From the IMG/VR virus record IMGVR_UViG_2706794662_000007: DNA of 64,000 bases; one strand, 5' to 3'. This stretch comes from a virus (lineage: Duplodnaviria; Heunggongvirae; Uroviricota; Caudoviricetes). The notes under the pieces were generated by a model. It was not told the DNA's origin and ran no database searches. It saw only the letters and a list, made by a program, of their open reading frames with translations. The position numbers and the translations under genes were made by a program. This document shows positions 1,320-58,892 of this stretch, piece by piece (positions within the stretch are counted from its first letter, which is position 1; every line of letters begins with the position of its first letter).

Positions 1320-2069
1320 TTAATTAGATAGGGGATCAATAAACCGCCGTGCTTCTTCCAGTTCTTCTGGAAAGTGGGCGGAAATAAGGCGCTCTGGAAC
1401 GATTTCCATTAGCCAGATAGCGGAGAAAATTGCGCGTATGCGCTTGCTGCGAGGGATGGTGCGCAAACACTCCAGAATCCACTCAAAATAGCTTTCCTGA
1501 ATCGGGTTGAACTGCATGTCTCCCATATGCTTAAAGCTAACAAGAGAGTCATCCAGACGGGTTGTTGCGCGTCTGGCTAATTTCTCTTCGAATATCTCAA
1601 CCAGCTCTGGCTGCCACAAATGCTGTGGGCGCGGCAGCTTGTCCCACAGCCGTCGTGCAGCTGCGGAAAGAACGGTGGAGATAAAGTAGTCGTATGAGCA
1701 GCAATAGCGGTCAGCAAACTGGCGTGCTTTCCATAGAGACGTTTTATTGGCAGTCGACAACTCCTGATAAGGCAGGCGTTTTAACCCGGTGGTGAACGGA
1801 GCTGTTTCAAAGTGTTCGCGACCGTGCGTCAGCATGATATTTGAGTACTGACGTTTGTATGCCTCCGTAAACAGACAGGTGGCCATAAGAGGATGCATGT
1901 CTCGGTAATCAAACCACTTCGTCTCGAAGAGTTCAGCCTCGTCTTTACAGCGCGACAAACCAATGTTTTCAGCGACCCACTTGTCCATAACAGCGGTATT
2001 CCACTCTGTCATGAAGTCGTACTGGTCGTTGTCGATGGTATCGAAAAAGATTTGGCTCATGTGGCTCAC
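1320..2069 (-). CDS. hypothetical protein, 249 aa (GTG at 2069 or ATG at 2060)
   Basis: ORF track; co-oriented just upstream of helicase gene. Confidence 0.45.
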   Translation of the reverse strand: MSHMSQIFFDTIDNDQYDFMTEWNTAVMDKWVAENIGLSRCKDEAELFETKWFDYRDMHPLMATCLFTEAYKRQYSNIMLTHGREHFETAPFTTGLKRLPYQELSTANKTSLWKARQFADRYCCSYDYFISTVLSAAARRLWDKLPRPQHLWQPELVEIFEEKLARRATTRLDDSLVSFKHMGDMQFNPIQESYFEWILECLRTIPRSKRIRAIFSAIWLMEIVPERLISAHFPEELEEARRFIDPLSN

Positions 2070-2176
2070 CTGGTAGGTAGTTACTTACTTATCACAATGG
2101 ACGGATGATAGCGACTGGTGTCAGTTTTTGGAAGTGAAAACGGAAGGGAGTTGTTCTGGTGGTGTCTTTTAAAAGA

Positions 2177-2229
2177 CCTGCTTCCGTATATATTTAATAA
2201 GTTACTTATTATTTATATACAGAAACAGG
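2177..2229. repeat. ~53-bp near-perfect palindrome, copy A (CCTGCTTCCGTATATAT...ATATACAGAAACAGG)
   Basis: inverted arms flank AT-rich centre TTAATAAGTTACTTATTA; near-identical copies at 33069-33123 and 63687-63747. Confidence 0.75.
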
Positions 2230-2334
2230 CTCCTAATGGATACCAAGAACAACATAATTTGACTCCAACTCCAGATGCTATGTCATTGACAGATTTATCA
2301 AGGGAGATCATGTTAGAATTAGTGTTTTAGCCTC

Positions 2335-3408
2335 GTGGATATTGTCACCATGCGCATGAATAGACTTCCAGGATATGGCCTTCCCGAACTGGCTTTTTGG
2401 CCTCAGCCTAAATATGAACGGAATAAATGGTCGATGTTCTGTCTGAAACTCCGTAATGATGGAACCCTTGCTTGGTATCGGCGATATGTTGATCGTGGTA
2501 TGCCAAACCACGCTGTTGATGACGACTACGATAACTATCCTGAAGCAAGAAAAGCGGCATTAGAGCTGAATAAAAACGTGAGCTTTGACATTGAAAAACT
2601 TCCTCTATCTATGTTTCAAAAGAAGTCATTGCGTTTGAAAGTTGACAAAGCACTCAAAGCCAAATCACGTCTCATGGATGAAGAGTATATAATGCTCAAC
2701 GAAGCAATTAAGGCACACGCCAACGATCCGCGAGTGACATTAAATGAGTTAATAATTAACCCAGATTACGAAACTTTGCGTCAACCCCTTTTTGACGTGC
2801 TAAGCGAGATGCCTTACTTACATTTTGTTTTTCTTCCCAAATTCCAAGTTTCACTTCAACTCGTTGCTCCTAACACTTGGGAATGTTCATATAACAACAA
2901 AGCTAAGACAGCGAAGATCTGCTACCAAGAACGCATAGCCAGAGGTTTTGGTTTATCAGGTGCTGCACATTGGGGAAAAACAAAAGCGACTATTCGCTCA
3001 ATGCTTCTGCCGCGTGCTAACCGGTTACTGCAACTCGCCAGCGTAAAAAGAATGCTGGATGAAGCTCTCAGGAATGGGCAAAAGGTACTGGTTGTTGGCA
3101 ACTTTGTTTTCTGGTTTGAGGACAAAAATCAGGTAGGTTGGAGTGTTAAAGTTGCTAGCGAAAGCGAAACCACCTCAAGAGGCAATACGCTCTGGAAAGA
3201 AGGAACTATCATTTCAAAAAATCACGGTCGAATTGTCGTGCTGCCGTATACAAAAGAAAACGGTAAACATGTAAAAGGTTATACCAAGAATGCCCCTAAC
3301 GACGGCAATGCAATTCCGAGACATAAGGATGAGTATGTTGAGTTGCCCTTTGAAATTTTGGATGGTGACTTGATGTTCAGTCTGTTCGGTGAGCTTAACT
3401 ACGAATAG
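2335..3408 (+). CDS. hypothetical protein, 357 aa; AT-richer than flanks (cargo-like)
   Basis: ORF track; only plus-strand gene in a minus-strand region; no motif recognised. Confidence 0.5.
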   Translation: MDIVTMRMNRLPGYGLPELAFWPQPKYERNKWSMFCLKLRNDGTLAWYRRYVDRGMPNHAVDDDYDNYPEARKAALELNKNVSFDIEKLPLSMFQKKSLRLKVDKALKAKSRLMDEEYIMLNEAIKAHANDPRVTLNELIINPDYETLRQPLFDVLSEMPYLHFVFLPKFQVSLQLVAPNTWECSYNNKAKTAKICYQERIARGFGLSGAAHWGKTKATIRSMLLPRANRLLQLASVKRMLDEALRNGQKVLVVGNFVFWFEDKNQVGWSVKVASESETTSRGNTLWKEGTIISKNHGRIVVLPYTKENGKHVKGYTKNAPNDGNAIPRHKDEYVELPFEILDGDLMFSLFGELNYE

Positions 3409-3468
3409 CTTTCATAGAACGAAATATTTCTAAGGCTGTCCAATGCAGACCAGCCTTAGAGATTTATA

Positions 3469-3828
3469 TCAACCTTTCTTCATTAACTCGCGTTTAATTT
3501 CATCGGTACGCATCGTGACATCGGCAGCAGTGATCGCCTCGTTAAGCTTCACGATGTCCTCGATTTCCTGCGGTGACTTCTCTGCCAGATGGAAAATAGC
3601 AGCACGAATCACATCAGAGCGGGTGAATTTCTCGAAGCGAGGGATGAACTTCATCATCTCCAGCAGTTCGAAGTATTCGTCCTCCAGTGACATTGTGCGG
3701 CTTTTAATTTTCTCTTTGCCACGAGTCGGGCGTCCCTGTGGTCTGACTGGTTGGCGCAAAGGAGTTGTGTTCTTAGCCGGTGCATCAGACTCTTTGCGCT
3801 TTGCTAGGTCACCCATTTTCATGGACAT
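3469..3828 (-). CDS. small partition partner candidate (ParG/ribbon-helix-helix-like DNA-binding protein)
   Basis: 119 aa, basic N-terminus, start overlaps parA stop (ATGA-type junction at 3828). Confidence 0.35.
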   Translation of the reverse strand: MSMKMGDLAKRKESDAPAKNTTPLRQPVRPQGRPTRGKEKIKSRTMSLEDEYFELLEMMKFIPRFEKFTRSDVIRAAIFHLAEKSPQEIEDIVKLNEAITAADVTMRTDEIKRELMKKG

Positions 3829-4496
3829 TATTCTTCTTCCTCCAGACTCAACAGATAATCTACAAATTCTTCAAACTCGGCTTCCGCCTTTTTGTCGCGC
3901 TCGCTACCGGTCATTTCAAAGATAGAACGACCAGACTCTTCCGCATCATCATAGACGTTGCGGTTATATAGATTGACTGGCGCAGACTCGATGCCAAACG
4001 TCTCAACAATCTCTTTAGCCGCCAGAATGCGAGACACTTGTGATGGCAAAGCCGGGCACTGGTTCATGACCGCGCGGACCTTCACTTTATCGTTTACATT
4101 GCGAACATTGTCGATAATAGGATCGATGTCACGTAAAGATTTCAAATCACGACGCTTAGGACGCAGCGGGATAATGATAACGTCAGCCATCAGCATCGCT
4201 TGTCGCTGAATTTCGGAGTCGAAGCCACCAGCATCTACCACTACAAACTCAGCTCTACCCTGAAGCGATTTTAGGTGCTTAATGATGTCATCCTGAACGT
4301 ATGCAAAAGGAATCAGCTCAAGGTCTTCGTTCTGTCGACGGTCTTCACACCAGCTCGTTGTCGTGCGCTGAATATCTATATCGGTAATATAAACCTTCTT
4401 CTTCTTTTTGACTTTCAGGCAAACGGCAATTTGCTGGGCAACGGTGGATTTGCCAGGCCCGCCCTTTGTGCCGCCAACCACAAAGATCTTGGTCAT
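3828..4496 (-). CDS. parA: ParA/ParF-type partition ATPase
   Basis: deviant Walker A GGTKGGPGKST at N-terminus; 222 aa. Confidence 0.8.
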   Translation of the reverse strand: MTKIFVVGGTKGGPGKSTVAQQIAVCLKVKKKKKVYITDIDIQRTTTSWCEDRRQNEDLELIPFAYVQDDIIKHLKSLQGRAEFVVVDAGGFDSEIQRQAMLMADVIIIPLRPKRRDLKSLRDIDPIIDNVRNVNDKVKVRAVMNQCPALPSQVSRILAAKEIVETFGIESAPVNLYNRNVYDDAEESGRSIFEMTGSERDKKAEAEFEEFVDYLLSLEEEE

Positions 4497-4530: not shown

Positions 4531-4549
4531 GAAACAACTTGTTTTCTTA
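4531..4549. promoter_or_regulatory. family-1 palindromic motif copy (GAAACAACTTGTTTTCTTA) ~35 nt upstream of parA
   Basis: recurrent motif; candidate operator or partition-operon control site. Confidence 0.5.
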
Positions 4550-6412: not shown

Positions 6413-7132
6413 TTAGGCCATCCCTTTCTGGTGTTTTCTTACCTGCGACCAGGCAATGAATCCTGCCACAACAATAGTGGCAATACCGAAGATGATGCGT
6501 ACTGTATCCCCACTAGAGATATGACCTTGTGCTTTATCCATAGCAGCGGAAACCTGCGGCATAACATCGGCCAGCTGCGCCAGACCAATACCTGCTGTAA
6601 CAGTTGCGCCTGCTGTTTCTTTAGTTACAGGAACAGCCTTCACGGTTTTCACCGGCTTAACGACTCCAGCTCGACGCAGACCTTCCTCAATAACTTCTGC
6701 CGCATACCAGGTGTTCAGCGTTTTTAGCGGACCTCGCCCATTCTCATGGCGAATGATTGCCTCAACCAAAGGTCGAAGGATGTCGTAATCATGCAGATCG
6801 ATGATCATGTCTGCGGTTACACCAACAGCTTTAGACACCTCATTAATGTAGGTGTCAGTGTTGTTTTCATTCGGCGGTGCCCAACGTTCAATAACTTCGC
6901 GAATGGTATCAATACTTGAGCCGTCTTTGGCGCGACGTTTATCGTGGTAGGTAATTAGAGTCACTGCCAGAGCACGAATACCCCAAACAGGGTCTTTAAA
7001 CGTGCAAAAGCGAGGTTCGTCTGGATTCGCAACCAGACCTTGCCACGGTGATCCTTTATCAAGATTACCGGGGTTATTATTACGAATGCCTCTCGGAGTC
7101 TTCATCCTTGTTCTCCTGTTATTGCAGTCCAT
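6413..7132 (-). CDS. putative cell-wall hydrolase (endolysin candidate) with C-terminal TM segment
   Basis: position between holin-like and spanin-like genes; GIRNNNPGNL motif; assignment positional. Confidence 0.35.
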   Translation of the reverse strand: MDCNNRRTRMKTPRGIRNNNPGNLDKGSPWQGLVANPDEPRFCTFKDPVWGIRALAVTLITYHDKRRAKDGSSIDTIREVIERWAPPNENNTDTYINEVSKAVGVTADMIIDLHDYDILRPLVEAIIRHENGRGPLKTLNTWYAAEVIEEGLRRAGVVKPVKTVKAVPVTKETAGATVTAGIGLAQLADVMPQVSAAMDKAQGHISSGDTVRIIFGIATIVVAGFIAWSQVRKHQKGMA

Positions 7133-7442
7133 TTTTTACGCCATATGCGGCTAATCCTAAAATTAGTGCGGTTATAATAAACGACGTCACTTTAGAAATA
7201 ATGCCTCCAAAGAAGCCGCTTGAGATCGAATCTAACCTATTAAGTAGTTTATCCAGATTGGAATGTTGAATACTGTGTTGAGCCGGAGTCATGTCACCAA
7301 AATAGTTTTTCAACTGCTCATGAACCTCATGAACTATCTCCTCTCTGATTTCTTTTCCTAATTTACCAACAACTTCTCTGGCGACAATTTTAGCTATTCT
7401 CTCAACCTGATCATGAGTGACGCCTCCTACGTCATTAGCCAT
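7119..7442 (-). CDS. small membrane protein, holin candidate
   Basis: 107 aa, single C-terminal TM helix, first gene of lysis cassette. Confidence 0.3.
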   Translation of the reverse strand: MANDVGGVTHDQVERIAKIVAREVVGKLGKEIREEIVHEVHEQLKNYFGDMTPAQHSIQHSNLDKLLNRLDSISSGFFGGIISKVTSFIITALILGLAAYGVKNGLQ

Positions 7443-17732: not shown

Positions 17733-18165
17733 AATGGATCACACCGTCGGCAAAATAATTCCGACGCGCATTACAGGCGTCATAACGTTTTGTGCAGTAA
17801 TCCGCACCAGACATAGACGTCTGCTGGTTATTTTTGTCGAAATATGGACCGGTATAGCCGCATTCTGGCCCTCGGTATTTCCACGGGCAGGTGTTTTTAA
17901 TGATCTGACGATACGGCAGTTGTACCCCCATCAAATCGAACACACTGGACAATTCAAACTCGACAACCTGATGAGTTTCGAGAGTTTTCTGTTCGATAAA
18001 CCACATTTCATCCGGGAAATGTTGGTTTGGATCTGCTGTTGGGTTGCCGTCTTTAAAATTAACGGCATCGAGGAAGCGAGCCAGCGTCATCTTGCGAATA
18101 ATGCGGCAGCCAACAAGATCGTCGTTCGCCTGAACTTCCGCAGAGACGGTTCCGGCAAAGTTCGN
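17698..18165 (-). CDS. minor tail protein L-like (5' part lost in N-run)
   Basis: C-terminal Cys cluster CPWKYRGPECGYTG...C..RYDAC; N-terminus masked. Confidence 0.65.
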   Translation of the reverse strand, partial: XNFAGTVSAEVQANDDLVGCRIIRKMTLARFLDAVNFKDGNPTADPNQHFPDEMWFIEQKTLETHQVVEFELSSVFDLMGVQLPYRQIIKNTCPWKYRGPECGYTGPYFDKNNQQTSMSGADYCTKRYDACNARRNYFADGVIHFGGFIGATRYG

Positions 18166-18414
18166 NNNNNNNNNNNNNNNNNNNNNNNNNNNNNNNNNNN
18201 NNNNNNNNNNNNNNNNNNNNNNNNNNNNNNNNNNNNNNNNNNNNNNNNNNNNNNNNNNNNNNNNNNNNNNNNNNNNNNNNNNNNNNNNNNNNNNNNNNNN
18301 NNNNNNNNNNNNNNNNNNNNNNNNNNNNNNNNNNNNNNNNNNNNNNNNNNNNNNNNNNNNNNNNNNNNNNNNNNNNNNNNNNNNNNNNNNNNNNNNNNNN
18401 NNNNNNNNNNNNNN
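18166..18414. other. run of 249 N (unresolved or masked bases)
   Basis: literal n characters. Confidence 1.
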
Positions 18415-34574: not shown

Positions 34575-35205
34575 ATTCCACCTTCACGCGTTCTTTGTAG
34601 TGCTTGGTGATCTGCATATCCGGGCGCAGCGCGTTCTTCAGGTCTTCGTGAGTCGTCGCCACCATTACCGTCGCACCAACCTTTCGAGCGGCACGCTGGA
34701 GGTTAGACGCCACAACCTGAGCGGTTACACGGTCTAGAACAGCGCCGAACTCGTCAGCAGCCCATACTTTAGCGCCTGACTCAATCAGTTTGGCAATCTT
34801 GAGACGATATTTCTGGCCGTCTGACATTTCAGAAGGCTTGCGAACAAACAGATATGCATCGTTCAGACCAGCCATAGATAACAACCCAAGCGCATCACTG
34901 GTCGTTTTGCCCAACTGATCGATGACGTTAACCTCATTATCGAAGGTAAAATCATCGATGGAGGCTACAGACAGCCCTTCATCCTTCATCTGTCGTTGCA
35001 ACTCGCGCAGCACAACGGATTTGCCGGAACCGGATTGGCCGGTGATGTACACCACATCGCCCTGCTTCACTTCCAGCTCCAGATTGTCGTAAAGCGTCCA
35101 CTCTTTTTCGTCCAGGCCAAGCCCGAACGACTCAGCGATTTCCAACGTGCGCGTGGTTTTATTTACGCGTGTCTGAAACGATACGTTGATGATGTATTTG
35201 CTCAT
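34567..35205 (-). CDS. stand-alone ABC-type ATPase (nucleotide-binding domain only)
   Basis: Walker A GQSGSGKS, signature-like MSDGQKYR, Walker B VWAADEFG, H-loop TTHE; no membrane partner nearby. Confidence 0.6.
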   Translation of the reverse strand: MSKYIINVSFQTRVNKTTRTLEIAESFGLGLDEKEWTLYDNLELEVKQGDVVYITGQSGSGKSVVLRELQRQMKDEGLSVASIDDFTFDNEVNVIDQLGKTTSDALGLLSMAGLNDAYLFVRKPSEMSDGQKYRLKIAKLIESGAKVWAADEFGAVLDRVTAQVVASNLQRAARKVGATVMVATTHEDLKNALRPDMQITKHYKERVKVEYA

Positions 35206-35870
35206 GCAGCCATCTCCCCGGAAGAGATTTTCTCCGCATATGCCACAAATGCGTCTACCCCGCTTTCTCCCGTCATTTCTTCCATGTGGGCAAGCAAATC
35301 ACCAACAACAATGGCAGAGCCAGCAGGAAGCGTTTTAAAGCCCAATACGTCGACAACACGTACTTCTTCCGCTGCAACTTCACGACTGATCTCGGTGTGT
35401 TCATCCTTCTGTCGTTTAGTTTCTTCGCCAAGATCGATAACTAGCGAGTCGGTGTCCATTTCTTCTGTCATACTGCCAACGAGAACATTCAACTCACGCT
35501 CTTCGAAGCCGAAAACCTCGATATCGTCCAGAACAAGCGACTCAAGCTCTTTCTGTAGCTTAATTGCATCGTAATCAATGCTGGCAAGTCGGTTATCTTC
35601 AAGGCGCTTCGCACGAACCTCGTCATCACTGAGATCATCGCGAACAATAACCGGTACACGCTCAAGTCCAGCAAAAATTGCAGCCTCACGACGGCCGTGG
35701 CCAGTAATAATTACGTCGTTCTTATCGACCGTAATTGGCTGGTCAAATCCGCGCTTTTTAATGGCTGCGGCCAGATCTCTGATCTGCTGTTCATCATGCT
35801 TTTTGGCATTCATCTCATAGGGAATAAGATCTGCCGGGTCGCGATATACGATTTCAAACTTTTTGGTCAT
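35202..35870 (-). CDS. ParB N-terminal (ParB/Srx fold) domain protein
   Basis: ParB box-like ITGHGRREAA; start taken at Met giving TAATG junction with upstream gene. Confidence 0.6.
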   Translation of the reverse strand: MTKKFEIVYRDPADLIPYEMNAKKHDEQQIRDLAAAIKKRGFDQPITVDKNDVIITGHGRREAAIFAGLERVPVIVRDDLSDDEVRAKRLEDNRLASIDYDAIKLQKELESLVLDDIEVFGFEERELNVLVGSMTEEMDTDSLVIDLGEETKRQKDEHTEISREVAAEEVRVVDVLGFKTLPAGSAIVVGDLLAHMEEMTGESGVDAFVAYAEKISSGEMAA

Positions 35871-36550
35871 TACATACGCTCCTTGTAGTAGTCGACCAGC
35901 CACACCAGAGCCTCACCAGCGTTCTCCATTTCATTACCGGTGTTAATAGCCTGCTCTTTGATGATGTTTTTTATGGTTTCTGCAACACGATCTGACGCAT
36001 CGAAAGTTACTTTGAAGCGCATGGTCTGATGTTCCGCCCCCACACGTTCGGTTTTCTCTCGTTTGTCGGTATCGACAGGCTCATCACTACCACGAGACAA
36101 CGCCTCCAGTGCTTCAAGGTCGATTGCCGCCTCTTTTGCTAAAACCATCGAGATTTCGTCGTCATACGGGGCGATTTCAGACAGTTGATAGTCAAGTTCT
36201 GACTGAATTTCTTCAATGAAGCGTTGCAATGCGATTTGGTCGTCTTCACCGTATCGCTCGTTGTCCACCAGTGACATCTGTTTAGCTACGACATCGCTAA
36301 TTTTGCCCACAGAAAGCACTGGAACCGTTGAAATTCCTTGCTCAATAGCGGCACGCCAGCGATGTTCGCCGCCGAGGATTTCAAAAAATCCATCTTCAAG
36401 TTCACGAGCCAAAATTGGCTTAAAAAAGCCCAATTTTTCGATAGAACCTTTCAGTTTTTCGAAATTCTGCGCACCAACCGAATTGGTGTTCCAGGTATTC
36501 GGGCGAAGGTTGGCAACATCAACCTGCAAAATCGTGATTTTTACGTCCAT
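35870..36550 (-). CDS. ParB N-terminal domain protein, paralogous neighbour
   Basis: ParB box II-like ILGGEHRWRAA; ATG at 36550 preferred over GTG at 36568. Confidence 0.6.
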   Translation of the reverse strand: MDVKITILQVDVANLRPNTWNTNSVGAQNFEKLKGSIEKLGFFKPILARELEDGFFEILGGEHRWRAAIEQGISTVPVLSVGKISDVVAKQMSLVDNERYGEDDQIALQRFIEEIQSELDYQLSEIAPYDDEISMVLAKEAAIDLEALEALSRGSDEPVDTDKREKTERVGAEHQTMRFKVTFDASDRVAETIKNIIKEQAINTGNEMENAGEALVWLVDYYKERM

Positions 36551-36632
36551 TTTATTGCTACAATCCACTAAGTAATCACTTACTTATTATAATAGCCAAA
36601 TAACATACAAAAGGCACTAAGGAAAGAGGTTT

Positions 36633-38654: not shown

Positions 38655-39248
38655 ATGAAACGTTCGTTACTTCTTGCTTGTATATACCTCTCGTCATTTT
38701 CCGCCAATGCGTTGTCAGATATCGTCTCCGACATGCAAAAAACGTACAGCATGTATACTTCTGAAGACGTACTAAAATACGAATCACGAGGTCTGATTCA
38801 ACCAGTCTGGTTCAGATTCTCAGATAACGCAGAAGAAACAATACTTAATGCAGGAAAAGAAAGATTACGGTTGCAAATTAACGGAACCGCTGTACCAGAA
38901 AACGTTAATGTAAGCTCTGACGAAGCCATGAAGCCATCTGGAATTGTTTTGGAAGTTCAAGACGGCACACTTTACTGTGATGAAATGGCTACAACAGGTT
39001 GCCAAGTAAACATTAGGGTTGGCAATGAAGAGCCTATCGTTACTTACGCCAAGGCTGAAGGGAATACAAGTGGAAAGGTATTGTTTATCGATGAAAATAC
39101 CTCAAAACGTATCGTTCGTGACATACAGAAAACAGCGAACTCTAAATCCGTCGATAAAAAAATCTATGTTGAGGTTCCCTTCTTTGTCGTTGGTAACAAA
39201 GAATTTAAATTTGGGTTGCTGAAAACACCTCTAAGAGTATCAGAATGA
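38655..39248 (+). CDS. secreted/periplasmic protein with signal peptide
   Basis: N-terminus MKRSLLLACIYLSSFSANA with AxA cleavage site. Confidence 0.5.
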   Translation: MKRSLLLACIYLSSFSANALSDIVSDMQKTYSMYTSEDVLKYESRGLIQPVWFRFSDNAEETILNAGKERLRLQINGTAVPENVNVSSDEAMKPSGIVLEVQDGTLYCDEMATTGCQVNIRVGNEEPIVTYAKAEGNTSGKVLFIDENTSKRIVRDIQKTANSKSVDKKIYVEVPFFVVGNKEFKFGLLKTPLRVSE

Positions 39249-39766
39249 GAACATTGGACATCACCTACGGCATACCGGCTGAAGTATGGCCGCGAGACTA
39301 CGAACATGCTGAACGTACCTTGCTCTTCTGGCGGAGTGCAAAATTTCCTGTAAGAGTCACTCTCGAAGACGGCCAAGTGTTTTGCATGTATGTCTACGGG
39401 CTATTGAGCGCAAGAAATAAGCTGAACCTCACACCAGATCCGCTTAGCAACACAAATCGTATAAGGCTCCCTCTTGAGCGCATTAGCACAATTGAGTCGG
39501 GCATAGAAGAGGTTGACACTTCATTCACAGGTCGACTAACGCTAAACAATGAACAGATGGTTAATCAGCCATCACGTCGTGACTTTTTTAAGATATGTCG
39601 TCAGGCTTACCAAAACGGCAAATCTATAAGGGTCTACATGGCAGACGGTCGCGAAATTGAGGGAACGTCAGATGGCGTTGACGCCTGTCTAGTCACACTT
39701 AAGTTGGAAGACGGTAGAAAAATACTTATTTTCTTCGATTGGGTTGAACGAATCCTTCCGTTTTAA
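39245..39766 (+). CDS. hypothetical protein, 173 aa
   Basis: ATGA overlap with preceding secreted-protein gene. Confidence 0.45.
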   Translation: MRTLDITYGIPAEVWPRDYEHAERTLLFWRSAKFPVRVTLEDGQVFCMYVYGLLSARNKLNLTPDPLSNTNRIRLPLERISTIESGIEEVDTSFTGRLTLNNEQMVNQPSRRDFFKICRQAYQNGKSIRVYMADGREIEGTSDGVDACLVTLKLEDGRKILIFFDWVERILPF

Positions 39767-41579: not shown

Positions 41580-41843
41580 NNNNNNNNNNNNNNNNNNNNN
41601 NNNNNNNNNNNNNNNNNNNNNNNNNNNNNNNNNNNNNNNNNNNNNNNNNNNNNNNNNNNNNNNNNNNNNNNNNNNNNNNNNNNNNNNNNNNNNNNNNNNN
41701 NNNNNNNNNNNNNNNNNNNNNNNNNNNNNNNNNNNNNNNNNNNNNNNNNNNNNNNNNNNNNNNNNNNNNNNNNNNNNNNNNNNNNNNNNNNNNNNNNNNN
41801 NNNNNNNNNNNNNNNNNNNNNNNNNNNNNNNNNNNNNNNNNNN
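41580..41843. other. run of 264 N
   Basis: literal n characters. Confidence 1.
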
Positions 41844-43049: not shown

Positions 43050-43167
43050 GATGGTTTCCTTATCAAGTTGCTTTCAGTGAAAGCATTTTCACAAATCAGA
43101 TAAGGCAGAAAACAAATTGTTATCGGGCATAAGAAAATGGCGCGGTTTACGCGCCATTCAAAGAGGA

Positions 43168-46634: not shown

Positions 46635-46934
46635 TTACCATTGCCAGCACTCAAGCCCTTCAACGACCGGTGCGCCACAATCAAAATGTACAGAGTTAAA
46701 GCCTACATCAAGTACTTTCTGAATGTTCGCAATCGCACCCTCGGATATACCATATCGACGCAACTCATCTTTCCAGTCATCGTCCTGTAACCCGGCGTGG
46801 ACAATGCAACCGTACTCAATTTGTGAAACCCAATCCAGCTCATTGCTTGCGATCATGAATCGGCGAGCATCTTCCTCTGATGTATGAGATGAACTGATCA
46901 ATGCCACCTGGTAGGCTTGGGTAATGTTCAACAT
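46635..46934 (-). CDS. hypothetical protein, 99 aa
   Basis: ORF track; two family-1 motif copies upstream. Confidence 0.4.
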   Translation of the reverse strand: MLNITQAYQVALISSSHTSEEDARRFMIASNELDWVSQIEYGCIVHAGLQDDDWKDELRRYGISEGAIANIQKVLDVGFNSVHFDCGAPVVEGLECWQW

Positions 46935-46988
46935 TTCAACTACTCCAAAACAAGTTGTTTTCTTATGTGGCTTATTATCTCAATCAAC

Positions 46989-47011
46989 AAAAGGTAGAAA
47001 ACAAATTGTTT
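46989..47011. repeat. 23-bp element AAAAGGTAGAAAACAAATTGTTT, left copy of exact direct repeat flanking metG-apbC
   Basis: identical 23-mer at 50832-50854. Confidence 0.8.
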
Positions 47012-47047
47012 TAGGGCTTGTGTAAATCAGGAGGGATTGTGTCTATA

Positions 47048-47075
47048 TGAAAATGCCCGGCGTGTTGCCGGGCAT
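47048..47075 (-). terminator. metG rho-independent terminator
   Basis: GCCCGGC-GTGTT-GCCGGGC hairpin plus U-tract on minus strand. Confidence 0.6.
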
Positions 47076-47095
47076 TGCGAAGAGAGGTTGTTTAA

Positions 47096-49034
47096 TTACT
47101 TAACCTGGTGGCCAGGTTTAGCACCAGCATCCGGGCTTAACAGGAAGATATCTTTCCCGCCAGGACCGGCAGCCATCACCATGCCTTCAGAGATACCGAA
47201 GCGCATTTTACGTGGTGCCAGGTTAGCCACCATAATGGTGTGACGACCAATCAGTGCCTGTGGATCTGGATAAGCGGAACGGATGCCTGAGAAGACATTA
47301 CGCTTTTCACCACCGAGATCCAGCGTCAGGCGAAGCAGTTTGTCAGAACCTTCGACAAACTCCGCGTTTTCAATCAGCGCCACACGCAGGTCAACTTTGG
47401 CGAAGTCGTCAAAGGTGATGGTTTCCTGAATCGGTTCGTCAGCCAGTGGGCCAGTTACCGGTGCAGCTGTGGCTTTCACTTCTTCTTTGGATGCTTCCAC
47501 CAGTGCTTCCACCTGTTTCATATCGATACGGTTATACAGTGCCTTGAACGGATTCACTTTATGGCCCAGAAGCGGTTGCTGGATACCATCCCAGGTCAGT
47601 TCTGTATTCAGGAATGCTTCTGCACGTTCAGTCAGTTTCGGCAGTACCGGTTTCAGGTACGTCATCAGCACGCGGAACAGGTTAATGCCCATAGAGCAAA
47701 TCGCCTGCAGATCTGCATCGCGACCTTCCTGCTTCGCCACCACCCACGGAGCCTGTTCATCGACATAGCGATTAGCCAGGTCAGCCAATGCCATGATTTC
47801 ACGGATAGCTTTACCAAATTCGCGGCTTTCCCATGCTTCGCCAATCACTTCAGCGGCATCAGTAAAGGTTTTGTACAGTTGCGGGTCAGCCAGTTCGCTT
47901 GTCAGCACGCCGTCAAAACGCTTGTTGATAAAGCCTGCATTACGGGAGGCCAGGTTAACCACTTTGTTCACGATATCGGCATTCACGCGCTGAACGAAAT
48001 CTTCCAGGTTGAGATCGATATCATCAATGCGCGAAGAGAGTTTCGCAGTGTAGTAGTAACGCAGGCTGTCAGCGTCAAAATGATTCAGCCAGGTGCTGGC
48101 TTTAATAAAGGTGCCGCGAGACTTGGACATCTTCGCGCCGTTCACCGTCACATAGCCGTGAACAAACAGGTTGGTCGGCTTGCGGAAGTTGCTGCCTTCC
48201 AGCATGGCAGGCCAGAACAGACTGTGGAAGTAAACGATATCTTTGCCGATGAAGTGGTACAGCTCGGCGGTGGAGTCTTTCTTCCAGTATTCGTCGAAGC
48301 TTACGCTGTCGCCGCGCTTGTCGCACAGATTCTTGAAAGAACCCATGTAGCCAATCGGCGCGTCCAGCCAGACGTAGAAATATTTGCCCGGCGCGTTCGN
48401 NNNNNNNNNNNNNNNNNNNNNNNNNNNNNNNNNNNNNNNNNNNNNNNNNNNNNNNNNNNNNNNNNNNNNNNNNNNNNNNNNNNNNNNNNNNNNNNNNNNN
48501 NNNNNNNNNNNNNNNNNNNNNNNNNNNNNNNNNNNNNNNNNNNNNNNNNNNNNNNNNNNNNNNNNNNNNNNNNNNNNNNNNNNNNNNNNNNNNNNNNNNN
48601 NNNNNNNNNNNNNNNNNNNNNNNNNNNNNNNNNNNNNNNNNNNNNNNNNNNNNNNNNNNNNNNNNNNNNNNNNNNNNNNNNNNNNNNNNNNNNNNNNNNN
48701 NNNNNNNNNNNNNNNNNNNNNNNNNNNNCTCTTCGCTGTGCGTCGAGTGATAGTTGTCATAGCTGATGTTAAAGCCTGCGAAATCAGTCTGATGTTCCTG
48801 ACTCATTTCGCCAATCATCTGTTCCGGTGTGATACCAAGCTGCTGTGCTTTCAGCATGATTGGCGTACCGTGGGCATCGTCGGCACAGATGAAATTAACC
48901 TCGTGGCCGCGCATTCGCTGGTAACGAACCCAGACATCAGCCTGGATGTGCTCCAGCATATGGCCGAGGTGGATTGAGCCGTTAGCGTACGGCAGCGCGC
49001 ACGTCACCAGAATTTTCTTCGCGACTTGGGTCAT
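47096..49034 (-). CDS. metG: methionine--tRNA ligase (interrupted by N-run; frame differs on the two sides of the mask)
   Basis: N-terminus [29 protein letters not shown] and C-terminus ...[24 protein letters not shown] recognised as enterobacterial MetRS. Confidence 0.9.
48390..48728. other. run of 339 N inside metG
   Basis: literal n characters. Confidence 1.
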
Positions 49035-49191
49035 AGTAGGCATTACTTCTTTGTAGTGAAAAGGGGCTTGATAGTAACAAAATGGCCTTATGTCTGCCAT
49101 GTGATAACAGCATTTCTCATAAATGATTAAATGTCGTAGCTGGAGTACACTACAAGGCGACAATTGCGCAAATTAAAATAAAGGAGACGGG

Positions 49192-50292
49192 ATGAGCGAG
49201 TCCAAATCGCCGGATGCCCTGAGAGCAATGGTAGCCGGTACGCTGGCTAATTTTCAGCACCCAACCCTGAAACACAACTTGACTACGCTTAAAGCGTTAC
49301 ACCATGTTGCGTTGATGGATGACACACTGCATGTCGAACTAATCATGCCTTTCGTGTGGAATAAGCCTTTTGAAGACCTGAAAGAGCAATGTAGTGGTGA
49401 TCTGCTCCGTATCACTGGCGCAAAGGCTATTGACTGGAAGCTGTCGTACAACATTGCCACGCTTAAGCGCGTCAAAAACCAACCAGGCATTAATGGCGTT
49501 AAGAACATTATCGCCGTCAGCTCAGGCAAGGGCGGCGTGGGTAAATCCTCCACAGCAGTAAACTTGGCACTGGCTTTGGCTGCTGAAGGTGCGAAAGTTG
49601 GTATTTTGGATGCCGATATCTATGGTCCATCAATTCCAACCATGCTGGGCGCGGAAAACCAACGTCCAACCTCACCGGACGGTACTCACATGGCACCTAT
49701 CATGTCTCATGGCCTGGCAACCAACTCTATTGGTTATCTGGTCACCGATGACAATGCAATGGTGTGGCGTGGACCGATGGCGAGCAAGGCGCTGATGCAG
49801 ATGTTGCAGGAAACACTGTGGCCTGATCTGGACTATCTCGTTCTCGATATGCCACCGGGCACTGGTGATATTCAATTGACGCTGGCGCAGAACATTCCTG
49901 TAACTGGTGCGGTTGTGGTAACTACGCCGCAAGACATCGCGCTGATCGATGCGAAGAAAGGCATTGTGATGTTCGAAAAAGTCGAAGTGCCGGTACTGGG
50001 TATCGTTGAAAACATGAGTGTGCATATTTGCAGTAACTGCGGTCATCACGAGCCAATTTTTGGCACCGGTGGAGCACAGAAACTGGCCGAGAAATACAAC
50101 ACGCAGTTGTTAGGCCAAATGCCACTTCATATCTCTCTTCGTGAAGATCTGGATAACGGAACACCAACCGTTATTAGTCGTCCAGATAGCGAATTTACGG
50201 CTATTTATCGTGACCTCGCAGATCGCGTTGCTGCCCAAATGTATTGGCAAGGTGAAGTAATACCTGGCGAAATCGCATTCCGCGCAGTGTGA
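49192..50292 (+). CDS. apbC: iron-sulfur cluster carrier protein ApbC/Mrp
   Basis: 366 aa, Walker A SGKGGVGKS, CxxC near C-terminus; divergent from metG as in enterobacterial chromosomes. Confidence 0.9.
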   Translation: MSESKSPDALRAMVAGTLANFQHPTLKHNLTTLKALHHVALMDDTLHVELIMPFVWNKPFEDLKEQCSGDLLRITGAKAIDWKLSYNIATLKRVKNQPGINGVKNIIAVSSGKGGVGKSSTAVNLALALAAEGAKVGILDADIYGPSIPTMLGAENQRPTSPDGTHMAPIMSHGLATNSIGYLVTDDNAMVWRGPMASKALMQMLQETLWPDLDYLVLDMPPGTGDIQLTLAQNIPVTGAVVVTTPQDIALIDAKKGIVMFEKVEVPVLGIVENMSVHICSNCGHHEPIFGTGGAQKLAEKYNTQLLGQMPLHISLREDLDNGTPTVISRPDSEFTAIYRDLADRVAAQMYWQGEVIPGEIAFRAV

Positions 50293-50298
50293 TAAAAA

Positions 50299-50317
50299 GG
50301 CGGTGCATTGCACCGCC
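50299..50317. terminator. hairpin GGCGGTGCATTGCACCGCC; U-tract only on minus strand
   Basis: read directly; lies between apbC stop and UmuD'-like gene stop. Confidence 0.45.
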
Positions 50318-50329
50318 TAATCAGTTCTC

Positions 50330-50719
50330 CTACATCACAGGACAATCATCAAACTCGCCACTTCTTGCGTCGTTGATAATGTGAGTGATCACACCAAACA
50401 CGGCATTGCTGCCCGTGCATCCATCGTCATCCTTTGGCAATGCTTCCTTCTTACCGGTTCTTAAATCCTCCAGATGCTGACGTGGAGACTTCCGGTATCT
50501 TTTTACGCGATATTCCCCATCCAGAGCGCATACAAGCAGAGAACCATCAACCGGGGTAAGTGAGGAATCAACCACCAGCAATGCACCCTGTAATATTCCC
50601 TCACGATGATGACTATCAGCTGCTCTCATGAAGTAGGTCGCTGAAGGATGTCTAATTATCTGCTGATCAAGAGAAATACGGCTCTCAGCATAATCCGCCG
50701 CAGGAGAAGGGAAGCCCAT
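50330..50719 (-). CDS. UmuD'-like S24 peptidase-fold protein (starts at the position equivalent to the UmuD self-cleavage site)
   Basis: MGFPSPAADY...HPSATYF matches UmuD from Gly25 onward; Ser and Lys of dyad retained (AADS, RVKR). Confidence 0.75.
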   Translation of the reverse strand: MGFPSPAADYAESRISLDQQIIRHPSATYFMRAADSHHREGILQGALLVVDSSLTPVDGSLLVCALDGEYRVKRYRKSPRQHLEDLRTGKKEALPKDDDGCTGSNAVFGVITHIINDARSGEFDDCPVM

Positions 50720-50735
50720 AGCGTTTTGCCCTCAA

Positions 50736-50755
50736 TACTGTTCATTTACACAGTA
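50736..50755. promoter_or_regulatory. LexA (SOS) box TACTGTTCATTTACACAGTA
   Basis: perfect CTGT-N8-ACAG core 17-36 nt upstream of UmuD'-like start; in-frame TGA upstream excludes longer ORF. Confidence 0.7.
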
Positions 50756-50831
50756 TACATGAAAGAAGCTCACTCAGTGCAACTGATCGGTACATAGCAC
50801 CAGACAAAGGAACGTTATTTTCTCGAACAAG

Positions 50832-50854
50832 AAAAGGTAGAAAACAAATTGTTT
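50832..50854. repeat. 23-bp element AAAAGGTAGAAAACAAATTGTTT, right copy of direct repeat, followed by hairpin 50855-50875
   Basis: identical to 46989-47011. Confidence 0.8.
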
Positions 50855-50904
50855 AAGGCCACAACTAGTGGCCTTAATGGAGAAGGGATGCTTATTGGCT
50901 ATGG

Positions 50905-51423
50905 CTAAAAATCAAANNNNNNNNNNNNNNNNNNNNNNNNNNNNNNNNNNNNNNNNNNNNNNNNNNNNNNNNNNNNNNNNNNNNNNNNNNNNNNNNNNNN
51001 NNNNNNNNNNNNNNNNNNNNNNNNNNNNNNNNNNNNNNNNNNNNNNNNNNNNNNNNNNNNNNNNNNNNNNNNNNNNNNNNNNNNNNNNNNNNNNNNNNNN
51101 NNNNNNNNNNNNNNNNNNNNNNNNNNNNNNNNNNNNNNNNNNNNNNNNNNNNNNNNNNNNNNNNNNNNNTTTAAAGGAAGATAGGTTCCCCATAGTAGCT
51201 GTCTGCCGTGCGCTCGTGTGAAATACCGGGCCATCTTCGGATTGCTATGCTGCTTAGGAGCGCCTGGTCTGTATGTCTGATACCCGGCCAACATCCCATC
51301 AAACCTGTATAGAGGGAATGTAACAACTCCTTCGCTTTCATCGATCCACTGTCTATATGGATGCACATCATAGCGGTAGTTACGAGTTAGCAAATGAGCT
51401 TCCAGCTTTCCAAATTTAGTCAT
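50905..51423 (-). CDS. hypothetical protein interrupted by N-run
   Basis: N-terminal part MTKFGKLEAHLLTRNYRYDVHPYRQWIDESEG... visible; start at internal Met. Confidence 0.4.
   Translation of the reverse strand: MTKFGKLEAHLLTRNYRYDVHPYRQWIDESEGVVTFPLYRFDGMLAGYQTYRPGAPKQHSNPKMARYFTRAHGRQLLWGTYLPLXXXXXXXXXXXXXXXXXXXXXXXXXXXXXXXXXXXXXXXXXXXXXXXXXXXXXXXXXXXXXXXXXXXXXXXXXXXXXXXXXXXXXFDF
50917..51169. other. run of 253 N
   Basis: literal n characters. Confidence 1.
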
Positions 51424-51436
51424 AACTTCGCATCCC

Positions 51437-52291
51437 TCATAACACTTCCCATTTATCACCATATTTCTCCATAGCTCTTAGCCAATAAACATGGCCACTA
51501 GGCATAGTGATGTGAGGCTCGCCAAACTCTTCTCCATGTACATCAAAGATGTCCCCAACAGAAAATTGGGGGATTTCTGTTCCGTTTTCACCTATATGTG
51601 TAATTCGTATACGTTTCGGTTGGGATTGTCCACCTTTGAGCGAGTTGTTCACTGCTCTGGCAATTTTCTCCCGCAATTGCTGCGTTCCGTGATACGTAAC
51701 CGCAATATCCCGCAACTCATTCACTAGTTCTCGAATTTGGTGATCTTTAAGCTCATTATTTGGGTGATTGGTAACAACTCTGGTTAATTCCCCATTGTCT
51801 TTTGCTCTTACGTATGCAGCTCTTGTGCATTCGCCCCATGTATTACCGCCTACATTAACTTCGTAGATTAGGCTGGACTTATCTGTCAATTCGGAACAAA
51901 TACGGGCCGTGGTCTGGCAACTAGAGCATTCGCAGTTATCGCGGAAACCGTGGTCTACTGGCTTCGGTTTAACATCATCAACTTTTTCTACCCTATTGGA
52001 ATTTAAATACTTCGAAGCCTTGCTATGCCAATCGCTGGTTTTAGGATCTTGTCCATCCATCAAACGCCAGGCTTCAGCTATTAACTCATAACTAGTGACT
52101 GTAGCTTCCTGCGCATCACCAATAAGTCGTGTAATCTCTCTTTCAAGCCGACCGCCTAACTCCGTTTTAGTGCAATGTTCTGACCAATCGCCAGTCTCAA
52201 GAAGCGCGAGAATGCTTAAAATATCGTCCAATAGAACGGTAGTATTATCGACTTCCTTCTGAAACTCACCGGCTACTGATTTATGCATCAT
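51437..52291 (-). CDS. hypothetical protein, 284 aa (Cys cluster CECSSC)
   Basis: ORF track. Confidence 0.5.
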   Translation of the reverse strand: MMHKSVAGEFQKEVDNTTVLLDDILSILALLETGDWSEHCTKTELGGRLEREITRLIGDAQEATVTSYELIAEAWRLMDGQDPKTSDWHSKASKYLNSNRVEKVDDVKPKPVDHGFRDNCECSSCQTTARICSELTDKSSLIYEVNVGGNTWGECTRAAYVRAKDNGELTRVVTNHPNNELKDHQIRELVNELRDIAVTYHGTQQLREKIARAVNNSLKGGQSQPKRIRITHIGENGTEIPQFSVGDIFDVHGEEFGEPHITMPSGHVYWLRAMEKYGDKWEVL

Positions 52292-52569
52292 TCGTCATCC
52301 TCATCCGAGTCATCCTCATCACAGGATGAGAGTAGTGGGTTAGTCATTCGCCCTACTTGAGTGGCGTAGCAACGCCGACAGAGATTGCGCAGCACACTGT
52401 ATATTTCGAACATCTCGGTTCGTTCATCGCCAACATCAAGCTCAGATGCTATAGCGTGGCATTCAGTCGCGAGAGCCGATATTTTCTGAAATAACTCTGC
52501 TTTATTCACTCTTCGACTCCTGCGGAGGTTCTGGTAGCGGCATCCAGTGAGTTGCTTGCTCAATACCAT
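52288..52569 (-). CDS. small hypothetical protein with acidic C-terminus (start uncertain)
   Basis: ORF track; 5' part overlaps upstream gene so true start likely internal. Confidence 0.3.
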   Translation of the reverse strand: MVLSKQLTGCRYQNLRRSRRVNKAELFQKISALATECHAIASELDVGDERTEMFEIYSVLRNLCRRCYATQVGRMTNPLLSSCDEDDSDEDDE

Positions 52570-53119
52570 TACCCGGCTTAATCGTTACATCTCCGCGCCG
52601 AAAGGTGATTCCGGTATAGCGTGCGGAGCATATTAGCGGTTCAACCAGAGAGCTATCGAAATTCACCGAAATAAGCACGTTCTGGCCCTTTTCAGGCATT
52701 CGCTCACTACAGCTTATCCAACCATCCGGAGTTACCGGATGGGGTCCAGCGAACTCGGGAATGTCAGGACCTTTTCTGATAGCTTTAGCCAGATCCAGCG
52801 GGTCATCGTAAAGCCAGTCGCCAGTTTGTGGGTGATTTGCTTCTGCAAGCTGCGCAGCCCATTCAAGACCATCTTTTTGACCTTGGAGATAATCAAGCGG
52901 CAACTCTTCATGATTACTTGCAGGTTCTGCACTATCAGCTTCGCGCCGCTTCTGTAGCTCTGCTGCCATCGCTCTCACGACTTCAACTGGTGCCCTTGCA
53001 GCAAACTCTATGTTGGTGATCAGCTCATTAAGATATTGCTCGCCTGGATACTGTTTCTTATCGGTTATAGTGGTCATATCACTCTCCTTTTCCCTGAAGC
53101 ATAGCAGCGCGGCAGGCAT
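52502..53119 (-). CDS. DUF551-like prophage protein
   Basis: C-terminal ATHWMPLPEPP signature segment. Confidence 0.5.
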   Translation of the reverse strand: MPAALLCFREKESDMTTITDKKQYPGEQYLNELITNIEFAARAPVEVVRAMAAELQKRREADSAEPASNHEELPLDYLQGQKDGLEWAAQLAEANHPQTGDWLYDDPLDLAKAIRKGPDIPEFAGPHPVTPDGWISCSERMPEKGQNVLISVNFDSSLVEPLICSARYTGITFRRGDVTIKPGNGIEQATHWMPLPEPPQESKSE

Positions 53120-53489: not shown

Positions 53490-53739
53490 NNNNNNNNNNN
53501 NNNNNNNNNNNNNNNNNNNNNNNNNNNNNNNNNNNNNNNNNNNNNNNNNNNNNNNNNNNNNNNNNNNNNNNNNNNNNNNNNNNNNNNNNNNNNNNNNNNN
53601 NNNNNNNNNNNNNNNNNNNNNNNNNNNNNNNNNNNNNNNNNNNNNNNNNNNNNNNNNNNNNNNNNNNNNNNNNNNNNNNNNNNNNNNNNNNNNNNNNNNN
53701 NNNNNNNNNNNNNNNNNNNNNNNNNNNNNNNNNNNNNNN
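53490..53739. other. run of 250 N
   Basis: literal n characters. Confidence 1.
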
Positions 53740-55903: not shown

Positions 55904-56041
55904 GTGTTTTTCTCTTCTTTGCTGTTACATAAGCACTACCAAGTGCTGGTTTATTTTCACAAATAAGAAAATGTAGAAAACAATTTATTTAAGGCCACAA
56001 CTTATGGCCTTTATTTATTCATGCCGAAGGATTTGTAGCGT

Positions 56042-57187: not shown

Positions 57188-58892
57188 TCATTTAACGCGT
57201 TTGAAAACGTATACGCTGACTGTGATCCCTGTGTCTTCAAACTCGTTGGTAAACGACTTCCCTCTGGCATAAACGTAATTATCCATCGTCATCCAGTCCA
57301 GTATTGGCGCNNNNNNNNNNNNNNNNNNNNNNNNNNNNNNNNNNNNNNNNNNNNNNNNNNNNNNNNNNNNNNNNNNNNNNNNNNNNNNNNNNNNNNNNNN
57401 NNNNNNNNNNNNNNNNNNNNNNNNNNNNNNNNNNNNNNNNNNNNNNNNNNNNNNNNNNNNNNNNNNNNNNNNNNNNNNNNNNNNNNNNNNNNNNNNNNNN
57501 NNNNNNNNNNNNNNNNNNNNNNNNNNNNNNNNNNNNNNNNNNNNNNNNNNNNNNNNNNNNNNNNNCCAGATCGGCGTTAATATAGGCCAGAAGATCCCCA
57601 CGTCCGGCTTGAGGCTCCAACAGCTTCTCACCAGGCTTCAATTCAGTGGCTCTGGCAACGTACTCAGCAATCAAGCGTGGGGTAGGGTAGAACTGGTGTG
57701 ATTTTGTATCCGGTATTAAACCGGTAGCCACAATCGTATTTAGCGTATGGCCGATCTCATACGGGAACTGCCAGTGCTTTTTCTCCTGCACGCCGCCAAT
57801 GAAGCTCAGTGTGCGCTCAAGCTCTTCCACCTGCGACTTCTGGAGAGCTGAATCAGAGAAGTACCATACGCCTTTGTCTTTGCTCAATCGCCCGTCACGA
57901 AGCGCAGTGCGAACCGGCACGGAGATCGTCTTCTGGATTAACCCGAACTGCTTTGGTGCCCGTGTTTTTGGCGCAGTTCGGCATGGCGCGGGGATTGCAG
58001 CAGGCATACTGTAAGCCAGCACCTCATTCAACTTCCAGGCCACGTCAGGATGTATTTCAAAGTGAACGTTGCCGTTCTTGAACATCTTCACGCGCATCAG
58101 ATTTCCATCGACGTTCATCCAGTCACCGGTCTGGCAGTCGTTTGCCCGATACGCAGCTGATAGCACCTCAGCAGTGCGGTTGATGGTAATAAATTCTTTG
58201 TGCGCGAAGAAATGAAGCAAGACACGCAGATCGTCGATGTAGTCCTCTTTGCGATAGTTCACGCTAACGCTGTCACGCCAGAAATCAGAAATGCAGTCAG
58301 CGATTATCAGACGCTCGCTGAAACCGTTTGTCTTATTTGTCTTGTGCGCAGGACTCAGCGCCTTAAACAAGCCATACACGCGCTCAGAGAGATATTTGTG
58401 CCTGTCATTCAGCAAATTAAGCATCGTTGGTATGACCGTTTCTGCTTTGAACTCCGGTACACCAACGAACTCTTTAACCTTCATCTGATAGCCGGTTCTG
58501 TCAGTTTTGATGACTTCCTGCTTGCCCTCGATAAATAGCTCACGCCACTCGTCGCGACGGGAAGCTGGCATGATCAGCAGAACGTTAGTCATATCCGTAA
58601 CCTTCCTCCAGTACTCGGCCCAAATATTCTGTTTCACCCATTCCAGATCGACGTTATCCAGCCAGACTCGATTCAAACGTGAGCGATCTTCATCTGGTCG
58701 GTGGTTTAGTCGAAGCAGGCGATTAATCATGTTGTGGCGTTCATCGCCATAAACGAAGTCGTGTACCTGATACATGAAGGAGATCTCTTTCTCGCACTCG
58801 GCCACAATTTCGTGGATGACGTTCATTTCCTGTCGATAGTCGATAGCAGTGTTTGAGCTGGCATCGCCCATGATGGAAAGGGCTGTATTCAT
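57188..58892 (-). CDS. gamma-class N6-adenine DNA methyltransferase-like protein with ~390-aa N-terminal extension (interrupted by N-run; C-terminal frame uncertain)
   Basis: motif X-like QFYPTPR and motif I-like LEPQAGRGDL just before mask. Confidence 0.5.
57311..57565. other. run of 255 N
   Basis: literal n characters. Confidence 1.

Follow-up and report, generated by a model that had tools for sequence, protein, structure and literature searches.

An exact 23-bp direct repeat around metG and apbC in an SSU5-like phage-plasmid probably belongs to a dispersed regulatory motif family

Introduction

The C1 operators of P1 and the KorB OB sites of RK2, the latter being 13-bp palindromes of 6-1-6 geometry, are dispersed operator regulons. 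In this study, we analysed a 64,000-nucleotide stretch of viral DNA (Caudoviricetes; IMG/VR record IMGVR_UViG_2706794662_000007; hereafter the window), in which an exact 23-bp direct repeat flanks metG and apbC, encoding a methionine--tRNA ligase (MetRS) and an iron-sulfur cluster carrier ATPase, respectively. The original prediction had offered three explanations for this arrangement: two prophage-like elements inserted on either side of the genes, capture of the genes by a phage-plasmid through recombination between the repeats, or a chimeric assembly. The results presented here indicate that the repeat is very probably a dispersed regulatory motif of a phage-plasmid and not the scar of a capture event. 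An exact short direct repeat around apparent host genes can, thus, be a regulatory motif rather than a mark of mobility.

As in the P1 C1 and RK2 KorB regulons, many copies of one short site lie at separate operon promoters in the window. The core of this site (the dyad) has the same 6-1-6 geometry as KorB OB sites, and one class of sites is centred ca. 40 bp upstream of the presumed transcription start, as class I KorB sites are; however, its sequence is unrelated to the P1 C1 or KorB sites, and P1 C1 sites are asymmetric. Among described elements, SSU5, pHCM2, pECOH89, p09EL50 and pLF82 (Cyrano) are like the window in backbone, gene order and repeated modules. SSU5 and the Klebsiella relatives match the window over the flanking backbone but hold other genes in the slot or show no metG-apbC match. 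The segment itself resembles phage morons in that it is a cassette placed between a promoter module and the next gene, with native divergent promoters and hairpins at both ends; unlike virulence- or defence-type morons, its cargo is a core housekeeping pair that duplicates the host's own. Second synthetases borne on plasmids are known to give inhibitor resistance, as exemplified by the isoleucyl-tRNA synthetases MupA and MupB and the leucyl-tRNA synthetase of agrocin-84 immunity, and here, too, an extra synthetase gene resides on a mobile replicon. While those enzymes are divergent resistant variants, the plasmid MetRS differs from that of E. coli K-12 at 7 of 677 residues and matches the ordinary MetG equivalog, so that a resistance role is unlikely.

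Identity of the element

At 100% identity, the metG-apbC region matched Escherichia phage CMS-2020a (CP054387.1), which is a circular element of 109 kb from E. coli SCU-175, and a plasmid of Shigella sonnei (LR213459.1). Identity was 98% with the E. coli O104:H4 plasmid p09EL50 and 94-97% with the phages PhiR41_1 and Cyrano (pLF82). The rest of the window was collinear with the same elements, running from tail through head to early region. Its identity with CMS-2020a was 97-100%, whereas Salmonella phage SSU5 and Klebsiella relatives were collinear with the window at ca. 80% (the SSU5 figure refers to structural and tail genes). All the records covering most of the query were ca. 100-130-kb circular plasmids or phage genomes; for example, p09EL50 is annotated with RepB, ParB, DnaE, NrdAB, an integrase and tRNAs, and PhiR41_1 was deposited as a phage with K-12 as its host. 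Cyrano virions have been reported by quantitative PCR and transmission electron microscopy (PMC9928086). Structural, replication and early regions were, thus, found collinear on one replicon, as in SSU5-like phage-plasmids. Judged by this collinearity, the whole 64-kb window is one contiguous SSU5-like phage-plasmid of the Escherichia/Shigella lineage represented by CMS-2020a, p09EL50, pLF82 and PhiR41_1. Since the arrangement recurs in hundreds of closed plasmids, it is not an assembly artefact.

The window contains six runs of N (18165-18414, 41580-41843, 48400-48728, 50917-51169, 53490-53739 and 57311-57565). None of the four that were compared with CP054387.1 was of true length (329 N for 424 bases, 253 for 246, 250 for 241 and 255 for 236), which distorts window coordinates and any reading frame that spans a run.

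The 23-bp repeat and the dyad family

The 23-mer AAAAGGTAGAAAACAAATTGTTT occurred as exact direct copies on the plus strand at 46989-47011 and 50832-50854, as originally predicted, and none of 100 dinucleotide-preserving shuffles yielded any 23-mer match. The two copies enclose metG, which is read from the minus strand, and apbC, which is read from the plus strand. Their resemblance continues over 44 nt, at 89% identity (46972-47015 versus 50815-50858), and further copies of the 23-mer, with three mismatches each, were found at 43100 and 55968. At its core, the 23-mer has a 19-bp palindrome, AGAAAACAA-N-TTGTTTTCT, which constitutes the dyad. When one mismatch was allowed in its 13-bp centre, the dyad was found at 15 sites; the core palindrome, thus, occurs at least 15 times in the window, and the prediction that a motif family is spread through the DNA on both sides of the genes was also borne out. 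In 84 kb of p09EL50, 18 dyad sites with at least 14 of 18 matches were detected, as against 0-1 in shuffles (ca. 0.2 expected). A scan of viral contigs for the exact dyad pattern returned so many chance matches to the AT-rich 15-mer that it was of no use, although contigs of ca. 90-112 kb had multiple matches.

Nearly all dyad sites precede a minus-strand operon, within ca. 10-110 bp of its first ATG. The operons headed in this way include those of parA-like, dnaB-like and cobT-like genes, the neighbour of an SPFH gene and many small early genes, so that copies lie at separate operon promoters in numbers far above chance, as in a dispersed operator regulon. Most sites are situated between a -10-like element and a Shine-Dalgarno sequence. 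At four sites, including both 23-mer copies, the dyad instead precedes a conserved -10-like element, GAWAAT, by a fixed distance, which puts the dyad centre at ca. -38 to -41. An alignment of ten modules from five elements revealed an invariant AGAAAAC and the -10-like GAWAAT at a fixed distance. Between the window and SSU5, modules were 86-89% identical while the adjoining coding DNA was 67-72% identical, which points to constraint on the modules themselves. As a separate observation, a parA-like gene (3828-4496) is followed by a 119-amino-acid (aa) open reading frame (ORF; 3469-3828) having no family match; a dyad copy at 4532-4544 precedes this parA-like operon, and the partition operon, thus, appears to be in the same regulon.

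The four putative promoter/operator modules of the 23-mer type all face leftward on the minus strand. The left module (46972-47015) holds the first 23-mer with the 19-bp palindrome AGAAAACAAATTGTTTTAG; in minus-strand order, the palindrome is followed after 16-19 nt by TGAGATAAT, the -10-like element. It heads a leftward operon whose first gene (46635-46934, minus strand) matches the DUF5983 family (PF19419), and its ortholog in the compared SSU5 stretch (L003) is at 7124-7146. A second palindrome copy, AAAACAAGTTGTTTTCT, at 46947-46963 (minus strand) lies past the -10-like element but ahead of the Shine-Dalgarno sequence and the ATG belonging to the gene at 46934, namely in the downstream operator position found at most other sites. 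This gene, thus, has both kinds of dyad site, 50 bp apart. The right module (50815-50858) holds the second 23-mer and is preceded on the minus strand by a hairpin (50853-50877). The third module (43083-43126) and the fourth module (55951-55994) contain the 23-mers with three mismatches, and the fourth has the same adjacent hairpin as the right module. There are at least four copies of a ca. 44-nt promoter/operator module, of which those with the 23-mer pair match each other best; the exact identity of the two 23-mers is incidental, these being the two closest members of a constrained family.

Limits of the metG-apbC cassette

In four plasmids that have this left flank and humD in common with the window, a DUF4145 gene takes the place of metG-apbC. 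In the alignment with one of them, pGS04EC-1, backbone homology stopped at ca. 47025-47031 and resumed exactly at the humD stop codon (50330). These breaks delimit a chromosome-derived cassette at ca. 47031-50325, with a true length of ca. 3.39 kb. The variable content of this region marks it as a cargo hot spot. In the compared pGS04EC-1 stretch (NZ_CP079773.1, L085), the DUF4145 slot is at 3125-4045; a few E. coli phage-plasmids with the DUF4145 gene are also without the block from the toprim gene to the DUF551 gene, which lies between the modules at 50832 and 55968.

The 23-mers bracket this cassette in a lopsided manner. The left copy ends 14-20 bp outside the left junction, while the right copy lies ca. 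500 bp past the right junction, from which it is separated by humD and a LexA box. The orthologous modules are present in SSU5 with five unrelated genes between them and no metG, and in PhiR41_1, which does carry metG-apbC, the two 23-mer copies differ at five positions. These facts imply that the motif is older than the capture and unconnected with it. The 23-mer motif was absent beside chromosomal metG-apbC loci. It had been suggested that a phage-plasmid captured the genes by recombination between the repeats; the first part of this suggestion holds, in that a phage-plasmid does carry a chromosome-derived metG-apbC pair, but the repeat-mediated step is unsupported, since the motif is dispersed and present in metG-less SSU5, lies off the right junction, is unequal between its copies in PhiR41_1 and is missing from the chromosomal loci. 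The repeat belongs to an already-sequenced element, and metG-apbC is a cargo cassette, probably long kept, that was not captured through the repeat.

An insertion sequence, a transposon and an att duplication were also considered and rejected: the right 23-mer is off the junction, between 42 and 57 kb, neither the list of window ORFs nor the annotation of p09EL50 has a transposase or integrase, and terminal inverted repeats were not detected. A target or att duplication is likewise at odds with the distance of 500 bp between the right junction at 50330 and the right copy, and with the presence of the modules in SSU5 and pGS04EC-1, neither of which has metG. A 6-bp AATCAG occurs at both cassette ends (ca. 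47026-47031 and ca. 50320-50325) and was given no weight because it is short enough to arise by chance.

A different role for the modules can be envisaged, in which they act as portable homology (linkers) and recombination between copies swaps, deletes or imports the metG-apbC(-humD) block. Consistent with this, the content between conserved modules varies (metG-apbC-humD in the window, DUF4145-humD in pGS04EC-1 and five unrelated genes in SSU5), several homology breakpoints lie within 20-50 bp of module centres, and the P1-like record MH422554 shares the right module and the adjacent end of the toprim gene at 90%. However, the cassette ends on the right at the humD stop codon, where there is no module copy and from which the module is 500 bp away, and many breakpoints are at least 300 bp from any module. 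Clustering of breakpoints in intergenic DNA is, moreover, general to mosaic phages, where disruptive ones are lost. The motif is missing from the chromosomal source locus and cannot, therefore, have had a part in the first capture. We, therefore, consider the linker explanation improbable as the main account of the repeat.

Integrity and history of metG and apbC

In the window, metG occupies 47096-49034 on the minus strand (677 aa in CP054387.1), with a putative terminator consisting of a hairpin and a T-run directly downstream of its stop codon (47047-47076, minus strand). The divergent intergenic region (49035-49191) retains the native chromosomal arrangement and is 57% identical to K-12 and 84% to Citrobacter. 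On its other side lies apbC (mrp; 49192-50292, plus strand; 366 aa), which encodes a Walker A motif (GKGGVGKS) and CSNC. A GC-rich hairpin at 50298-50318, between the apbC and humD stop codons, has its T-run on the minus strand; it looks like the humD terminator and may act in both directions. Scores against curated cut-offs were 1018 versus 587 bits for MetG (NCBIfam equivalog model NF001100), 759 versus 348 bits for ApbC (NF008669, ApbC/Mrp) and 219 versus 120 bits for HumD. MetG contains HLGH at residue 22, KMSKS at 333, and CPKC and CEVC at 146 and 159, and its C-terminal domain (TIGR00399) scored 164 bits. It, thus, has the HIGH and KMSKS signatures, zinc knuckles and C-terminal tRNA-binding domain of a methionine--tRNA ligase in addition to a score above the cut-off, while ApbC combines such a score with the deviant Walker A and CxxC cluster-binding motifs of its family. 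The genes had been described as intact-looking; both are intact in CP054387.1, which is 100% identical over this region, but metG in the window is broken by the N mask at 48400-48728.

The dN/dS of metG was 0.01-0.08, and the ApbC protein was 100% identical across three plasmids despite a dS of 0.06-0.15. Three substitutions relative to K-12 MetG (S319T, V442I and R538K) were common to all four plasmid alleles examined. On the evidence of these substitution rates and the conserved motifs, both genes are intact, under strong purifying selection and functional-looking.

The two genes differ in their histories. Overall, metG was 95% identical to K-12. At third codon positions, codons 81-420 differed from K-12 at 5.0% of sites and the remainder at 21.7%; none of 200 permutations matched this contrast, and chromosome-to-chromosome controls were not significant. 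A run of 344 bp in the plasmid metG was identical to K-12, and the pattern of mosaic tracts varied among plasmid metG alleles. Plasmid apbC was without such conversion patches. It was 82% identical to E. coli overall with a dS of ca. 1.5, as distant as Salmonella or Citrobacter, and sliding windows over apbC and the intergenic region were ca. 57-87% identical to E. coli. A donor search among 80 enterobacterial species loci found apbC at 82% DNA identity at best, and a search of 5.8 billion proteins found nothing nearer to ApbC than clusters at 94-95%, which include E. coli and Salmonella proteins. The simplest reading of these patterns is an old or foreign capture, after which host copies would have converted metG repeatedly. 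Aside from this, the metG of CP170191.1, labelled Enterobacter hormaechei B56, was identical to E. coli K-12 metG, which points to mislabelling or contamination of that record.

Prevalence and expression of the cassette

Plasmid-type apbC, defined by an identity of at least 90%, was found in 216 records when 5,426 complete E. coli genomes were searched, the plasmid-type matches being on plasmids. Every chromosomal E. coli apbC was 82-83% identical to the plasmid type, with no intermediates. A neighbouring backbone segment was found in 184 genomes, and comparison of the two counts indicates that the cassette is nearly universal in the lineage. Records of Pseudomonas phage Y5 and Acinetobacter phage MD-2021a also matched metG and mrp, at 68-72%; these may reflect prophage calls extending into chromosomal DNA, or genes captured independently.

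In a Cyrano lysogen, RNA sequencing gave 92 fragments per kilobase per million (fpkm) for the homologue of apbC (9 times background), 16 fpkm for that of metG (about 1.6 times) and 148 fpkm for that of humD, although the metG reads may be ambiguous over the parts nearly identical to the chromosomal copy (PMC9928086 Table 1 and S1). The apbC homologue is listed there as a moron (PMC9928086).

A model for the dyad and the cassette

Based on these results, we hypothesise that a dimeric regulator encoded by the phage-plasmid binds at the dyad and coordinates leftward early operons for replication, partition, nucleotide metabolism and small accessory genes. The dyad would work from two positions, either over the -35 region (23-mer type) or downstream of the -10 element and ahead of the ribosome-binding site. 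That the dyad is the DNA operator of such a dimeric regulator is a reading we favour with some reservation. Candidate binders are two ParB_N proteins (35202-36568), the 119-aa protein encoded after parA (3469-3828) and an FljA-like protein (39245-39766). The metG-apbC pair, with its native divergent promoters, would fill a variable cargo slot between one module and humD. Illegitimate recombination may have brought it in, either at an early date or from an enterobacterium that has not been sampled; it has then been kept under purifying selection, with metG apparently being patched repeatedly by homologous recombination with the host chromosomal metG. Independently of this model, it is worth recording that the ORF at 39245-39766 (plus strand) is full-length for PF03614 ('repressor of phase-1 flagellin', FljA; E = 1e-68) and that a regulator of this family was unexpected in the early region of a phage-plasmid.

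Several points weigh against this model. A CI-like helix-turn-helix gene beside the integrase was examined as the source of the dyad binder and rejected, as its own control region has other repeats and no dyad. A simple sigma-70 consensus scan called none of the module promoters, which have poor -35 elements; this canonical scan found fewer promoter-like sites in the window than in shuffles and was uninformative. Because the scan is silent, the assignment of module promoters rests on the conserved -10-like element and its position. With regard to the cassette, no apbC donor chromosome was found beyond ca. 82% DNA or 95% protein identity, and an ancient capture and an unsampled donor are indistinguishable. 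In principle, the metG mosaic could have come ready-made from a mosaic donor, but this option is countered by the differences in mosaic pattern among the plasmid alleles. Finally, since several mosaic breakpoints between relatives fall within ca. 50 bp of module centres, the modules may serve as recombination linkers, and a secondary role of the modules as homology for cassette exchange among phage-plasmids is possible.

Could the conserved sequence act instead as an element of the RNA 5'-leader under a translational repressor such as the FljA-like protein? Salmonella FljA acts on the fliC mRNA leader, the phage-plasmid encodes a protein of the same family (PF03614), and most dyad sites, lying between the -10-like element and the Shine-Dalgarno sequence, would be transcribed. 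However, the dyad of the 23-mer type is upstream of the -10 element and would thus be outside the mRNA. Besides, the perfect DNA dyad has a single central base, with which a hairpin loop is impossible, and the predicted RNA folds of the leaders were weak and inconsistent (-2 to -4 kcal/mol). A leader element is, thus, very unlikely. The last explanation, in which chromosomal metG-apbC lies between two independent prophage-like insertions or in a plasmid/chromosome chimeric assembly, has a negligible probability and both of its forms, each put forward in the original prediction, are refuted: its sole support is the resemblance of metG and apbC to E. coli housekeeping genes, whereas more than 200 circular plasmids of ca. 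100-130 kb, each closed independently, have these junctions, as do deposited phage genomes, every chromosomal E. coli apbC shares only 82-83% identity with the plasmid gene, the 5,426 E. coli chromosomes keep their own metG-apbC, and both flanks are collinear with a single SSU5-like genome.

A common phage-plasmid lineage of E. coli and Shigella, present in ca. 4% of complete E. coli genomes, encodes ApbC and an additional MetRS, which is conserved and almost identical to that of the host. The metG mosaic beside an unpatched apbC offers a clean natural system for plasmid-chromosome gene conversion, and the dyad provides a testable handle on the coordination of SSU5-type early operons, which is apparently uncharacterised. 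The papers searched on SSU5-like elements, p09EL50, pECOH89 and Cyrano, together with phage-plasmid surveys, make no mention of a dyad operator, of metG or of apbC; metG and apbC are annotated in public records nonetheless. We regard the second MetRS-ApbC pair, the metG conversion mosaic and the putative, undescribed operator regulon as mildly interesting leads. A broader and more speculative view, which we consider doubtful, is that the MetRS-ApbC pair serves the element, for example by supporting translation or the supply of Fe-S enzymes in lytic growth, or by buffering an attack on methionyl-tRNA charging, that metG homology shuttles alleles, and that the dyad represents an undescribed regulon. 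If this were true, the ca. 2-kb metG homology would be a standing gene-conversion partner by which a temperate phage-plasmid shuttles essential-gene alleles between Escherichia strains, and the 19-bp dyad would, separately, be the signature of a global regulon in SSU5-type phage-plasmids that had not been described before.

humD and neighbouring regions

The gene that follows the cassette, humD (50330-50719, minus strand), encodes a UmuD-like S24 peptidase of 129 aa and lies outside the chromosomal cassette. It was 85-88% identical at the DNA level to humD of P1, P7 and SJ46. A LexA box, TACTGT-N8-ACAGTA, was read from the sequence upstream of humD (50734-50753) and is covered by the P1 homology. 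The P1-like MH422554, P7 and SJ46 also matched beyond humD (window 50330-50916; 1501-3343 in the compared MH422554.1 stretch, L084). The extra match in MH422554 consists of the SSU5-type right module and the 3' end of the toprim gene at 90% identity, which indicates that SSU5-type and P1-like phage-plasmid families have undergone exchange at the humD spot. A link to a GNAT/DUF1778 toxin pair, which is present in p09EL50 and Cyrano, was rejected since that locus is replaced by other ORFs in the window. Lastly, an internal duplication of ca. 0.9 kb at 91% identity was found between 57566-58500 and ca. 51857-52791; the duplicated DNA is part of a DUF4942 gene (57279-58892) and recurs over a 284-aa ORF and its neighbours downstream of the toprim gene.

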